NCBI GenBank assembly: GCA_023247705.1
Contig: JAHFFY010000008.1
Coordinates: 664 to 64,663, forward strand
Source of the DNA: Candidatus Omnitrophota bacterium
Lineage (GTDB): Bacteria > Omnitrophota > Gorgyraeia > Zapsychrales > JAHFFX01
Length of the DNA stretch: 64,000 bases
Reading direction: 5' to 3'
Shown here: positions 3,153 to 57,504 of the stretch, one piece after another
Position numbering within the stretch: the first letter of the stretch is position 1
Layout of the letters: each line of letters starts with the position of its first letter
Made by a program: the position numbers and the translations under genes
Notes under the pieces: model-generated
What the model was told of the DNA's origin: nothing
Databases searched by the model: none
What the model saw: only the letters and a program-made list of their open reading frames with translations

Positions 3153-3626
3153 AAAAACTCCTAAATTTTAAATCAAATAAAAAGACAAGTTATTCTAGCC
3201 AAAATCAATTCGGTTCGCAACCACTTTTGTCAATACTTGCTTTATGTGTTATACTTTTGCTGAAAATGACCAATGAGAATGTTTCTTGTTCTTTCCCAAA
3301 GAAATAATAAAGTCAAAGGTAAACTACGTCGAAAGCGTAGGGCCCCTAGATCAAATGTCATCTATCTGATCCAGGGCGGTCGTCAAAAATCGATGACCGA
3401 CAAAGCCTCGAACCTAAATCTCGCTAACTAGTACTTTGTCAAACCCATTTTTAATAGTTGATCCCTCTATACTTTGCAGGAAATCAATTATTAAAAACAA
3501 AATTGACAAAGTACTAGCTAGATATGGTTGTCCGGCTGCCGTAATCTTTAATAATAAAGATTCCGTTTAATCATCTTTCAGCCCTTCTTTCGCAGAATAC
3601 CTTTGCGCAATATAAAGGGAAGAAAG

Positions 3627-12134: not shown

Positions 12135-12231
12135 TTATTGAGCTTTTTCTTTCCGACTCTAAATCTCTCGCTGGCGATACCGACGTTGGTGAGAGATTTA
12201 GAGTTTCGTTTAGTAGAAAGAAGCTCAATAA
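12135..12231. repeat. Palindromic MITE/REP-like element, family A copy 1 (97 bp, TIR TTATTGAGC/GCTCAATAA)
   Basis: Near-perfect inverted arms TTATTGAGCTTTTTCTTTCCGACTCTAAATCTCTC / GAGAGATTTAGAGTTTCGTTTAGTAGAAAGAAGCTCAATAA around loop GCTGGCGATACCGACGTTGGT. Copies at 57408-57504 and 19170-19267. The atpC stop codon (12225-12227) lies in the right arm. Confidence 0.6.
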
Positions 12232-12506
12232 CTGGGATCAGATTTTTCTTCGATGGTTTCCAGGAGGACCGTCACCTTATTCTTCAACACTTCCAGAAAT
12301 CCTTTTCCTTTGGAATGAAAAACGGCATTGGAATCCTTCTCGCCACGAACCACAATTTTTCCCGGCACTAAGGTGGTCATCAGGGGGGCATGTTCAGCGA
12401 GGATCCCTAAATAGCCTATTTCTCCCGGGACGGTGATGGATTCAGCGCTGCCTTTATAAAGCGTTTTTTCCGGAATGAGGATATTAAGAAAAAATGACTT
12501 CTGCAT
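12225..12506 (-). CDS. atpC: ATP synthase F1 epsilon subunit, short form (N-terminal beta-sandwich only)
   Basis: 93 aa; follows atpD; epsilon N-domain pattern; the C-terminal helical hairpin is absent and the stop codon is inside repeat A. Confidence 0.8.
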   Translation of the reverse strand: MQKSFFLNILIPEKTLYKGSAESITVPGEIGYLGILAEHAPLMTTLVPGKIVVRGEKDSNAVFHSKGKGFLEVLKNKVTVLLETIEEKSDPSY

Positions 12507-18932: not shown

Positions 18933-18970
18933 AAAAATAAATTCGTTATTGAGCTTTTCTTTCCCCTATT

Positions 18971-19186
18971 CTAAGGATCTTTCTTGGGCCGAGAATCATG
19001 ATCTCCTTTGCTTAATAACTTCCACGCCTCATAACCGCAATACAACAACCCCACAAACATACCGATCAACGTCCAGTATTCGGTTCCTTTGCGTTGATCG
19101 ATCCAATAACCGATACCGGAAAAAACAATCATCCCGCTGACCAGATTAAAACCAAAGGAAATCGCATTATTATTGAGCTTTCCCAT
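18971..19186 (-). CDS. AtpZ/AtpI-like small membrane protein preceding atpB
   Basis: 71 aa; two TM helices; operon position. The start codon and first six codons are encoded by the terminal arm of a family-A repeat (19170-19267). Confidence 0.55.
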   Translation of the reverse strand: MGKLNNNAISFGFNLVSGMIVFSGIGYWIDQRKGTEYWTLIGMFVGLLYCGYEAWKLLSKGDHDSRPKKDP

Positions 19187-19267
19187 TTAAATTCCAAATC
19201 TCCCTCTTGTCATGTGAACGCTGTCGGGAGATTTAGAGTTCTGCTTACTTAAAAAGAAGCTCAATAA
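19170..19267. repeat. Palindromic element family A copy 3 (diverged), overlapping the atpZ-like start codon
   Basis: TTATTGAGCTTTCCCATTTAAATTCCAAATCTCCC...GGGAGATTTAGAGTTCTGCTTACTTAAAAAGAAGCTCAATAA; same termini and length class as copies 1 and 2. Confidence 0.5.
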
Positions 19268-19428
19268 GCCTTTCCTTTCCAGGTCCCAATCGCCCCTGCC
19301 TCTCTTCAATCTTATTGGTCTTTTTCTTTAAAAAGTGGCCTTATAATATCATAAGAATTTGAAAGTCAAAATAAAAAATATTAAATCAAACACCATGTCC
19401 CAAGAGAGGGGAAATTGTTGATTCTGAA

Positions 19429-20193
19429 TTAAATAAAGAGAAAAATAACCGCAACTACGATCCGGTAAACCCCAAACCAGGTAAAGTTATGTTGTTTGAT
19501 GAAATGCAGCAAAAATTTGATACTGAAGATCGCCACGACAAACGATACGATAAATCCGACCAACAATAATTTGAATTGCGATACCGAAAATTCATGGGCG
19601 TGTTTGATCAGATCCAACCCCGTGGCCGCCAGCATGGTCGGCGCGGCCAATAAAAAGGAAAACTCTACGATCACGGTCCGTTTGATGCCGATCGCCAATC
19701 CCCCCAGGATCGTCGCGGCGGAACGGGAAACCCCGGGGACCATCGCCAGAGATTGAAACAACCCGACCATAAAAGCTTTGGGGTAAGAAATTTTTTCCAG
19801 CTCCCGGACTGCATCCTTCCGTTCATGATAAAAAAATTCGAACACAATAATAATGACACCGCCAATTAAAAGCGACCACAACACCACCTGGATGTTTTCC
19901 ATCAGGATGTGTTTGATCATCTTGTAAAGGACTAATCCCATCACCGCGGTTGGGACAAAGGCGACACACACCCGGCTTAAGATTTTCCGGTTCAGGATAA
20001 ATTTCTGCCAATACAAAACAACGACCGACAAAATTGCGCCCAACTGAATGGAGATATCGAATGTCTTCAGATATTCGGTTGATGGCAAACTTAATAACTT
20101 GGAAGTTAACAACAAATGCCCGGTTGAGGACACCGGCAAGAATTCGGTGCCCCCTTCCACCAGGCCCAACACGACCGTATCAAGCATATTCAT
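19429..20193 (-). CDS. uppP: Undecaprenyl-diphosphate phosphatase (BacA/UppP)
   Basis: 254 aa; polytopic; LPVSSTGHLLL near the N-terminus is the UppP motif. Confidence 0.9.
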   Translation of the reverse strand: MNMLDTVVLGLVEGGTEFLPVSSTGHLLLTSKLLSLPSTEYLKTFDISIQLGAILSVVVLYWQKFILNRKILSRVCVAFVPTAVMGLVLYKMIKHILMENIQVVLWSLLIGGVIIIVFEFFYHERKDAVRELEKISYPKAFMVGLFQSLAMVPGVSRSAATILGGLAIGIKRTVIVEFSFLLAAPTMLAATGLDLIKHAHEFSVSQFKLLLVGFIVSFVVAIFSIKFLLHFIKQHNFTWFGVYRIVVAVIFLFI

Positions 20194-25997: not shown

Positions 25998-26267
25998 ACT
26001 CTATGCAAAAAAAACAAAATGCAAATTATAACTTCCCGCTATTCTTTGTAAAGGGGAAGACCAATAAAAATAACTTTTTAGGATGAAATTATAGCTTATT
26101 TTTGCTTTCTTTCTTAGGATATTGCATTTTTTTTATAGTCCTATTTTCTTGCTCCCTTCTCTAAATTATTGAGCCTCCTTCCATTAAACAAAAAGAAAAA
26201 TTCAATAAGGTGAAAAATATTGTATTTTTATCTTAAGGACAAACTTCTTAAGTTATAATGAATTAAA

Positions 26268-31821: not shown

Positions 31822-32208
31822 CTAGTTCAACTGCGCGATGAGAAAGCCCAAACGGAACACAGCAAACCCGATCACCACACTCAACAGAATATACAGCAAT
31901 GCGCTCCCCGCGGCCCCCGCCTTGTTCAACTCATCCGTCTCTAGAATAAACGTCGAGAAGGTCGTAAAGGCCCCGCAAAACCCGGTCATGAGAAACAATT
32001 TCAAGTCACTGCCCAATAAAAATTTCTTTTCGGCCAGGCCTGCCAAAAGACCGATGATAAAACATCCCAACCCATTGACGACCAAGGTGCCGTAAGGAAA
32101 AACCGGTCCGGCAATACGGGTGATCCATCCGGCCAAAAGATACCGTGCGATCGTCCCCAAAGTCCCGCCGGTCATCAGACAAAACAATTTATTCCATCCC
32201 ATCTTCAA
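31822..32208 (-). CDS. crcB: Fluoride channel CrcB/Fluc
   Basis: 128 aa; four TM helices; GTLGTIARY and GFCGAFTTFSTF motifs. Confidence 0.85.
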   Translation of the reverse strand: MKMGWNKLFCLMTGGTLGTIARYLLAGWITRIAGPVFPYGTLVVNGLGCFIIGLLAGLAEKKFLLGSDLKLFLMTGFCGAFTTFSTFILETDELNKAGAAGSALLYILLSVVIGFAVFRLGFLIAQLN

Positions 32209-32591
32209 CCAACCTTTCGGGGTGCAATCAACGCGGCGCTGAAATACAACAAGAGCCCCAATCCGCCCGCAAAGATCAAAACGACAAAGATGATCCGGAA
32301 GATGACCGGATCCAGATTAAAAAATTCGCCCAAGCCCCCGCAGACCCCGGCGATCTTGCGGTCCCGGTCGGACAAATAAAACCGTTTATGCGCAACGACC
32401 GCGACCGTTCCCTCGTTTTCAGGGACCACCATCCACATCACGAAATAAACCAAAATCCCGATTCCCCCTAAAACAGCAACCAGGACAAACGCAATCCGGA
32501 GGATGACCGGGTCCATTTGAAAATATTCTGCCAACCCCCCGCAGACCCCGGCGATTTTACGTTCTTGTTTGGATCGGTAGAGTTTTTTCAT
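32205..32591 (-). CDS. Tandem PspC-domain membrane protein
   Basis: Two repeats KIAGVCGGLAEYF...DPVILRIAFVL / KIAGVCGGLGEFF...DPVIFRIIFVV; overlaps crcB by 4 bp. Confidence 0.75.
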   Translation of the reverse strand: MKKLYRSKQERKIAGVCGGLAEYFQMDPVILRIAFVLVAVLGGIGILVYFVMWMVVPENEGTVAVVAHKRFYLSDRDRKIAGVCGGLGEFFNLDPVIFRIIFVVLIFAGGLGLLLYFSAALIAPRKVG

Positions 32592-48258: not shown

Positions 48259-48621
48259 TCATTGATCATCTTTGTCCAAATGAAAATGATGCAAAAATCG
48301 GTGTAAAAGCGGCGTAAACAGGATCGCGAGAGATGAATAAAAACCCACCGCACTCAACAGCGCAAAAACAGCCGTGAAAAATTTTCCGGAATCAGTTTGC
48401 AGGTTACCCTGGAGGCCTAAACCGGTCATGATCATGACCGCATTCACCAAAGCATCGACCCAAGATTGGTGTTCAAAATAATAATAACCCAAAGTTCCCG
48501 CAAAAATGGTTATAGACACAATAACCATCGAAAAAATAAAACTGTTCAACATCCTCTTTAGAAACAGGTCATACGGCAGGACAGGTTGGCGCCGATGTTC
48601 AAAAATAAATCGTTTGGGCAT
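48259..48621 (-). CDS. Small 2-TM membrane protein, possibly ion-channel-like
   Basis: 120 aa; two TM helices flanking MTGLGLQGN. Confidence 0.4.
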   Translation of the reverse strand: MPKRFIFEHRRQPVLPYDLFLKRMLNSFIFSMVIVSITIFAGTLGYYYFEHQSWVDALVNAVMIMTGLGLQGNLQTDSGKFFTAVFALLSAVGFYSSLAILFTPLLHRFLHHFHLDKDDQ

Positions 48622-48717
48622 GAAATTGATTTTATCTTAAAAAATCGGGACAGACACTAATTTTCTTTTGAAAAATAGGGTTTGTCCCGCATTACCGATG
48701 AAAGTTTGAAACAAGGC

Positions 48718-49706: not shown

Positions 49707-49771
49707 GATCTCTATTACTAGGAACAGAGACTAATTTCCTTTTGAAAAATGGTGTCCTTATTTAATTTCCC

Positions 49772-57407: not shown

Positions 57408-57504
57408 TTATTGAGCTTTTCCTTTCCAACTCTAAATCTCTCGCTGGCGATACCGACATGGACGAAAGATTTAGAGTTTCGTTGAGTAGAAAGAAGCTTA
57501 CTAA
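57408..57504. repeat. Palindromic element family A copy 2 (97 bp)
   Basis: TTATTGAGCTTTTCCTTTCCAACTCTAAATCTCTC-GCTGGCGATACCGACATGGAC-GAAAGATTTAGAGTTTCGTTGAGTAGAAAGAAGCTTACTAA. It abuts the DUF503 start codon and contains the yfcH-like stop codon (57501-57503). Confidence 0.6.

Follow-up and report, generated by a model that had tools for sequence, protein, structure and literature searches.

A probable MITE-type palindromic element of uncultured Omnitrophota and its insertion in and between genes

The 64,000-nucleotide stretch of DNA analyzed here (the window; contig JAHFFY010000008.1 of a Candidatus Omnitrophota bacterium) contains several copies of a palindromic repeat of about 97 bp, which we call family A. 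We consider it highly probable that family A is a mobile element of the MITE (miniature inverted-repeat transposable element) type. It would be a non-autonomous cut-and-paste MITE of an uncultured Omnitrophota lineage, 91-130 bp in length, that is presumably moved by a transposase encoded elsewhere. According to this proposal, TTAA is the insertion target, of which the central TA becomes duplicated, and the conserved ends TTA.../...TAA of the element would be derived in part from it. Its persistence may be explained by tolerance of insertions in any of the reading frames: an insertion within a gene would add about 31 residues without a frame shift. The family itself is new; its kind is ordinary. 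A preliminary description of the same DNA had called the repeat "MITE-like", and this label is upheld by terminal inverted repeats, by dispersed copies in several genomes, by a nested copy with an empty site, and by in-frame copies in unrelated genes.

Three full copies lie on the plus strand of the window. Copy 1 (12135-12231, 97 bp) is located between the atpC stop and the start of a VTT-domain gene (12112), with its A-to-B' strand (see below) antisense to the flanking genes. Copy 2 (57408-57504, 97 bp) separates the stop of a yfcH-like epimerase gene from the start of a DUF503 gene, and copy 3 (19170-19267, 98 bp), which is old and diverged with broken frames, has uppP (BacA) on one side and the atp operon on the other. 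A repeat search of the window joined the three into one family, with 90% (copy 2) and 63% (copy 3) identity to copy 1. Using nhmmer and a profile of six copies, we recovered them with E-values of 5e-29, 1e-27, and 2e-24, and a chance origin of the three is excluded. All three had been described before and are real, each with a profile E of at most 2e-24; the window also holds two partial copies that the earlier count had missed. The first is a half copy consisting of the A arm only (18946-18987, plus strand), situated upstream of atpB, in and beside the 3' end of atpZ. Its profile E-value of 0.8 is weak alone, and its first 20 nt match the A arm almost exactly. The second, on the minus strand of a divergent intergenic region (26166-26208, 43 bp), is probably an internally deleted copy in which the B arm and the A' end are kept and the central hairpin is gone. 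It starts with TTATTGAGC, ends with TTCAATAA, and fits a B arm plus an A' end; its profile E-value is 2.2, and the assignment is a reading of the sequence by eye.

Nearly the entire element is one imperfect palindrome with the ends TTATTGAGC(TT)...(AA)GCTCAATAA. The termini TTATTGAGC...GCTCAATAA are present as reported earlier, and the terminal inverted repeats, which had been given as 9 bp, extend to a perfect repeat of 11 nt, TTATTGAGCTT/AAGCTCAATAA. This repeat occurs in nearly all copies; copy 2 differs by drift at the right end, which reads GCTTACTAA. The central stem CTCTAAATCTCTC/GAGAGATTTAGAG agrees with the earlier description, and so does the loop GCTGGCGATACCGAC that copies 1 and 2 share. 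Across the family we found lengths of 91, 97, 98, and 130 bp, with 97 bp as the commonest; the 130-bp form is a single copy with an enlarged loop. Most copies have two unlike arms. Arm A reads TTATTGAGCTTTTCCTTTCCAA-CTCTAAATCTCCC..., and on the opposite strand arm B reads TTATTGAGCTTCCTTCTAGTAAACAGAA-CTCTAAATCTCCC...; the copy at L004 8360-8450 (L numbers designate retrieved loci) is a 91-bp perfect A-A' palindrome. The G+C content of the element is 37-39%, compared to 46% for the window, and its sole open reading frame (ORF) codes for a peptide of about 31 residues without a match to any family.

In an alignment of 13 copies, the terminal helix is 93% paired and the central helix 98%; in the latter, 6 of the 12 pairs show compensatory changes. 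The central stem occurs in variants such as CTCCAAATCTCC/GGAGATTTGGAG, CTCTAAAACTC/GAGTTTTAGAG, and ATGACAAATCTCC/GGAAATTTGTCAT, to which a copy in a kinase gene (L095) adds CTCTGAAACTCTC/GAGAGTTTCAGAG, and in one subfamily the termini co-vary as well (TTATTGACC/GGTCAATAA). The palindrome is thus maintained, as this conservation of pairing shows. While variable in other respects, the loop often keeps the motif ATCGAYG or ACCGACG on the A-to-B' strand (e.g. window 12176-12184, L003 7609-7615), even in subfamilies that have diverged. Possible origins of the motif are ancestral sequence, a site of methylation or binding, and a constraint from the encoded Ile/Thr-Asp.

To establish how far family A has spread, we searched public genomes and metagenomes. 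An exact pattern consisting of the terminus and both central-stem arms gave no match in 185,579 GTDB species genomes and matched four JGI/ENA metagenome loci; a scan of viral contigs gave no family A match. Further copies, among them those that a profile search recovered in these and additional retrieved loci, came from JGI, ENA, NCBI, and Logan assemblies: L001/L002, L003 (two copies), L004 (two), L005, L006 (two), L089 (two), and L095/L096. Family A thus occurs in at least five other metagenome or metagenome-assembled genome (MAG) sources, with at least 14 distinct copies in unrelated loci of several assemblies and nine more host ORFs at the protein level. At L089 237-432, two elements of different subfamilies stand side by side, the second without its outer terminus.

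The best GTDB relatives of AtpG from the window are proteins of Candidatus Omnitrophota MAGs with an identity of only 49-55%, and AtpD is 83-85% identical to proteins named Omnitrophica or Omnitrophota. The window therefore belongs to an Omnitrophota lineage without a close species representative. The element is absent from 80 atp loci of other taxa, and also from the atp loci of the closest relatives (AtpD 83-85%). Since these latter loci contain a different gene downstream, the junctions are not comparable as orthologous empty sites. An nhmmer match after atpC in another Omnitrophota MAG (L013 5597-5688) was rejected as a chance hit, being weak and located within coding sequence. L003, L004, and L006 each contain a second copy less than 10 kb from the copy by which they were retrieved. 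Absent from the GTDB scan and from other atp loci, yet with second copies nearby, family A is lineage-restricted and locally dense.

Evidence for movement comes from L005, a locus from the same ENA sample as the strain of the window, where a family A element lies inside another palindromic repeat (family B). In the window, family B is an uninterrupted 98-bp palindromic repeat (3424-3521) with the ends CTAGTACTTTGTCAA...TTGACAAAGTACTAG. Its center contains a TTAA (3491-3494, unstranded) which represents a related empty site, and the L005 paralog carries family A at exactly this position. Alignment of the empty and the filled site leaves a single gap of 93 columns between ..ATCAATTAT and TAAAAAC... 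The filled site reads ..CAACTA-TGATTGAGC...GCTCAA-TA-AAAAC, which corresponds to a gain of 93 bp with TA on both sides. The target-site duplication that the preliminary description had asked for is matched by this one paralogous pair, with moderate support, and on comparison of these sequences insertion at TTAA with duplication of TA appears somewhat more probable than other modes. If this model holds, the outer T and A that are conserved at the element ends belong to the target; the flanks of all family A copies have nothing in common beyond TTA/TAA.

Both copies of family B outside the window (L005 ~1166-1354 and L002 ~487-645) are interrupted at the same central TA/TTAA by another small element, and this site looks like an insertion hot spot. 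The repeat nested in family B at L002 (~533-612, family C) is an unrelated, TA-flanked MITE-like palindrome of about 75-80 bp (TATAGCCCTGTTC...GAACTGGGCTATA), which suggests that these genomes harbor several families of TA-targeting elements. TA duplication is a feature linked to the IS630/Tc1-mariner and IS5/IS427 families. From the TA duplication, our best guess for the partner enzyme is a transposase like those of IS630/Tc1-mariner or IS5/IS427; an IS630-type enzyme specifically can be named only tentatively.

The dimensions of the element are such that an insertion may leave the surrounding frame intact. The net insert, calculated as the length minus four target bases, is 93, 87, or 126 bp, and in 11 of 12 copies this difference is divisible by three. 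In 10 of 12 copies, neither strand has a stop in the frame nTT-ATT-GAG-CTT, the products being ..IELFLSNSKS..RFRV..KLNK and, from the complementary strand, ..IELPSSKQNSKS..RFRVGKEKLNN. Of the other two frames, one is usually open, and one contains 2-8 stops and starts with T-TAT-TGA; insertion into a T-TAA stop in this latter frame thus restores the stop after one extra tyrosine.

We then examined whether the element peptide occurs in proteins. An indexed search with a dimer profile of this peptide returned only three small spurious ORFs (P0001-P0003). In an exhaustive profile search, 15 of 1.84 billion representative proteins contained the peptide, among them a CoaX protein (type III pantothenate kinase, P0178), a HAMP/HisKA/HATPase sensor kinase (P0177), a sulfatase-family protein (P0182), and CoaB/DFP (P0184). 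Residues 1-16 and 90-297 of P0178 align to residues 1-16 and 55-249 of a solved CoaX, from which it follows that about 35 extra residues stand directly after the conserved DVGNT strand. At the DNA level, a 97-bp element lies in frame in a histidine kinase gene (L095 4994-5090), with the junctions ...TCG CCC C/TT ATT GAG ... CTC AAT AA/T CAA CGG (slashes mark the element ends). These junctions are consistent with CTT AAT as the ancestral sequence. The same contig encodes a group II intron-type reverse transcriptase (RVT_1 + GIIM, L095 226-1611) 3 kb upstream of this gene. The symmetric L004 copy (L004a) is contained in a 503-residue ORF which runs on for 120 codons past the element, and in two further cases the element forms the C-terminal tail of an ORF, one of 353 and one of 157 residues.

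By the published descriptions, bacterial MITEs are less than 200 bp long and A+T-rich, have terminal inverted repeats and 5'-TA-3' termini, duplicate their target, form a long stem-loop, and carry ORFs that are fused in frame (PMC2229807, PMC10969869). Family A is small and A+T-rich, contains no transposase, has inverted repeats and a long stem-loop, and is dispersed; the TA termini and target duplication are moderately supported. Several observations weigh against this assignment. The filled and empty sites form a single pair, and this pair consists of paralogous repeats of 88% identity, not of orthologous sites; in addition, a TA duplication requires two substitutions beside the junction. 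In about 150 kb of element-bearing sequence, we found no transposase and no autonomous or IS-sized element with matching ends. No presence/absence polymorphism between strains was seen, as the two loci from the strain of the window (L007 and L008) are 100% identical to it. For the 503-residue ORF of L004, the search for an uninterrupted homolog yielded only proteins that reach the N-terminal 27%, and the insertion could not be confirmed in this way. Finally, transposition alone accounts for neither the orientation bias described below nor the conserved asymmetry of the arms.

The genes adjoining the full copies in the window are all encoded on the minus strand, and the element contributes to several of their ends. 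The preliminary description had proposed that atpC and the yfcH-like gene take their stops from copies 1 and 2, and an atpZ-like gene its start from copy 3, and inspection of the sequence confirmed all three. The atpC stop TGA (12227-12225, minus) lies inside the right terminus of copy 1 (...AGT TAT TGA), and the stop TAG of the yfcH-like gene (57503-57501, minus) inside the right terminus of copy 2 (...TCT TAG TAA). For the AtpZ-like ORF, the ATG inside copy 3 (19186-19184, minus) is the sole in-frame start that can be used, and the A' arm of this copy encodes the start and the first six residues, MGKLNN. The atpZ stop TAG (18971-18973, minus) falls within the half copy, in a stretch that matches CTCTAAATC of the element. 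Both ends of atpZ are thus built from element remnants. The ATG of the DUF503 gene (57404) is 3 nt away from copy 2.

The C-terminus of AtpC, ...DPSY followed by the stop, is encoded by GAT CCC AGT TAT TGA, of which the tyrosine and the stop codon come from the element. Before insertion, the gene would have ended in ...AGT TAA. In this scenario, atpC and the yfcH-like gene received copies 1 and 2 in their stop codons, and older copies would now provide the atpZ start and stop. AtpC consists of 93 residues (12225-12506, minus) with the beta-sandwich domain present and the C-terminal helices absent. We considered the possibility that atpC was truncated by the element and rejected it, since Omnitrophota relatives also carry an epsilon subunit of 85-100 residues. 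As judged from these sequences, the short AtpC is a lineage trait, not element damage.

Other explanations of family A are conceivable. One possibility is that the element, whether or not it moves, works as a one-way terminator or insulator like SPRITE, and that in operons and genes it is tolerated only where it blocks antisense transcription. The A-to-B' strand forms a hairpin followed by TTYTGTTTA, and the other strand a hairpin followed by TTGGAAAGGAAAAG. A terminator scan flagged the plus strand of copy 1 (20 pairs, then TTTCGTTTAG) and left copies 2 and 3 unflagged. The T-rich tail is conserved on the B' side of all asymmetric copies and absent on the A' side, and on the strand that is sense to the window genes no T-tract follows the hairpin. 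Among the 11 copies that lie between co-directional genes or in a gene, the A-to-B' strand is antisense in nine (copies 1, 2, and 3, L003a, L003b, L004b, L006a, L006b, and L095); the two sense copies are the adjacent ones of L089, which directly follow a stop codon. This ratio corresponds to only P ~0.07 (two-sided). Addition of the larger ORFs from the protein search (5 vs 1) gives 14:3 and P ~0.01, although that search was biased because four of the six query peptides were B-to-A'.

We regard the orientation bias as suggestive and unproven. It could reflect one-way terminator polarity, tolerance of the more hydrophilic B-to-A' peptide, or the direction of replication, and these three are not separable here. 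The T-tract of the putative terminator is moreover interrupted (TTCTG, TTTCG), and the symmetric A-A' copy lacks any tail. Taken together, a role of family A as a one-way terminator or insulator appears unlikely. About as unlikely, in our estimate, is the combined possibility that host selection on orientation and position in Omnitrophota has shaped the family, and in part exapted it, into a "three-frame-safe" module for insertion. Such a module would comprise restoration of stops, supply of starts and stops (atpZ), a hydrophilic surface loop of about 31 residues on essential enzymes, and, by way of the conserved asymmetry of the arms, a one-way terminator that suppresses antisense transcription across operons. 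If family A is a MITE, any effects on transcripts, for example by a hairpin in the atp mRNA or a terminator-like tail on the antisense strand, would plausibly be side effects.

A second alternative holds that family A is mainly a cis-acting RNA structure of the host, such as a site of RNase III processing, an mRNA-stabilizing hairpin, or an atp 5'-leader, and that it is kept by selection instead of transposition. The preliminary description had likewise raised a conserved structured RNA and suggested folding and covariance analysis. Folding predicts long hairpins for the window copies (-26 to -46 kcal/mol, z -2.3 to -7.5 vs shuffles) and energies of -26 to -72 kcal/mol across copies. The stem pairs covary strongly, and the three window copies lie in or at the ends of transcription units in one orientation. 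ERIC and Correia elements are also known to affect transcripts by way of RNase E or RNase III (PMC10969869). However, covariation does not tell an RNA from a DNA palindrome, since one transposase has to accept the two transposon ends alike, and it is equally expected of a DNA palindrome with two equivalent ends. With Rfam 15, neither the window nor six loci gave a match at the gathering threshold; permissive settings brought up only hits far below it, of which the best, STnc400, scored 24.7 bits against a threshold of 80, and the others were microRNA-precursor hairpin models. Neither strand consistently folds better, the A-to-B' strand being the more stable one in 7 of 12 copies. An apparent strand-specific signal from G-U pairs in copy 1 (-46 vs -36.7 kcal/mol) was gone across the 12 copies. 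Loop sequence and length vary, up to the 130-nt form, copies lie within coding regions of unrelated proteins and within another repeat, and the element is missing from the same atp operon in the closest relatives. We consequently do not retain a conserved structured RNA as the primary nature of family A, and rate this explanation as quite improbable.

Still less credible is the notion of a REP/BIME-type element that is moved as single-stranded DNA by a RAYT (IS200/IS605-like) transposase. REP sequences are short (20-40 nt), G+C-rich imperfect palindromes that are associated with RAYT and cause no target duplication. Family A is palindromic, mostly extragenic, and possibly biased in strand or orientation, which would fit this notion. 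Yet at 97 bp it is far longer, it is richer in A+T, and it lacks the short G+C-rich hairpin. Its termini are those of a cut-and-paste transposon: symmetric terminal inverted repeats and TA duplication at TTAA are not products of single-strand transposition. Moreover, the flanks contain no conserved target of 4-5 nt, and the element is often found inside genes. The earlier designation "REP-like" is therefore not borne out. Similarity by chance or low complexity can be dismissed altogether, since ten full-length copies have profile E-values of 1e-19 to 1e-31, far beyond chance, as does the most diverged one, L003b (2e-10), and the termini and stems recur in independent assemblies.

Among known systems, the MITE-type element described here appears closest in behavior, by analogy, to the Rickettsia palindromic elements (RPEs). 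These are palindromes of about 100-150 bp with an ORF which lie in frame within unrelated housekeeping genes and add a short peptide (PMC10969869, PMC2229807). The host of family A belongs to the Omnitrophota and not to the Alphaproteobacteria; family A works like the RPEs and is likened to them by description, not as a member. For RPEs the target duplication is marked as unknown and a TA terminus is listed only for some (PMC2229807), whereas family A has the TA/TTAA signature; at the DNA level, family A copies are in addition mostly intergenic or at gene ends.

The Correia/NEMIS elements of Neisseria are likewise small palindromic MITEs with TA termini and target duplication, positioned beside and in genes, and the ORFs of their short form are fused to host ORFs as in family A (PMC10969869, PMC2229807). 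They are transcribed as long hairpins that are cleaved by RNase III, and promoter elements can form at their junctions (PMC10969869, PMC2229807). A weak counterpart in family A is the promoter-like sequence TTTAGA-18-AATAAT at the junctions of copies 1 and 3 only, which depends on a flanking base, is absent from most copies, and should be seen as a weak lead. A sigma-70 promoter upstream of copy 3 that had been read by eye was not confirmed by a promoter scan. The terminal repeats also differ in length, with 24 bp in Correia (PMC2229807) and 11 bp in family A.

RUP from Streptococcus pneumoniae is a MITE of about 100 bp with terminal repeats of the 9-bp class that inserts at TA and into other mobile elements (PMC2229807), much as family A is nested in family B. 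In contrast to family A, the ORF of which is conserved on both strands, RUP has no contiguous ORF, and its partner is known (IS630-Spn1) (PMC2229807). ERIC/IRU and YPAL from enterobacteria are imperfect palindromes with TA termini and in-frame ORFs, found in transcribed intergenic regions and co-transcribed with upstream genes (PMC2229807), and they affect mRNA stability (PMC10969869). They come from other taxa than family A and have other sequences. The pneumococcal SPRITE is a mobile repeat that resembles an intrinsic terminator and that clusters with or inserts into other MITEs (PMC10969869); the terminator-like tail of family A is imperfect and confined to one strand. Finally, PARCEL is coding DNA in which dyad symmetry gives similar peptides from both strands (PMC2996958), similar to family A, although PARCEL consists of tandem arrays of 25-residue units in ORFs and family A of dispersed single copies with transposon-like ends.

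In addition to family A, the sequences contain a few other features. In the window, a 90-nt direct repeat (32283-32372 and 32484-32573, 78% identical) lies within two adjacent ORFs of 128 residues each (31822-32208 and 32205-32591, minus), which are probably tandem paralogs. A repeat of about 48 nt, unrelated to family A, occurs in three mostly intergenic copies (48603-48681 and 49708-49755; ..AAAAAATCGGGACAGACACTAATTTTCTTTTGAAAAATAGGGT). On L006, a contig that also has two family A copies, a weak match to the MamF/MmsF family (19375-19698) stands beside a ParA/MipZ-like gene.

MITEs are hardly described in candidate phyla that are known only from metagenomes, and our literature search found no paper linking Omnitrophota or Omnitrophica with MITEs. 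The existence of such an element bears on the annotation of MAGs. Family A creates spurious small ORFs (P0001-P0003), shifts the apparent ends of genes, adds about 31 residues to real proteins (CoaX, CoaB), and supplies start or stop codons (atpZ, atpC). The presence or absence of individual copies could serve as a strain marker. If family A is indeed a MITE, it would be a compact example of a selfish palindrome made harmless in three frames, and the phenomenon known from the RPEs would be repeated in an unrelated phylum.

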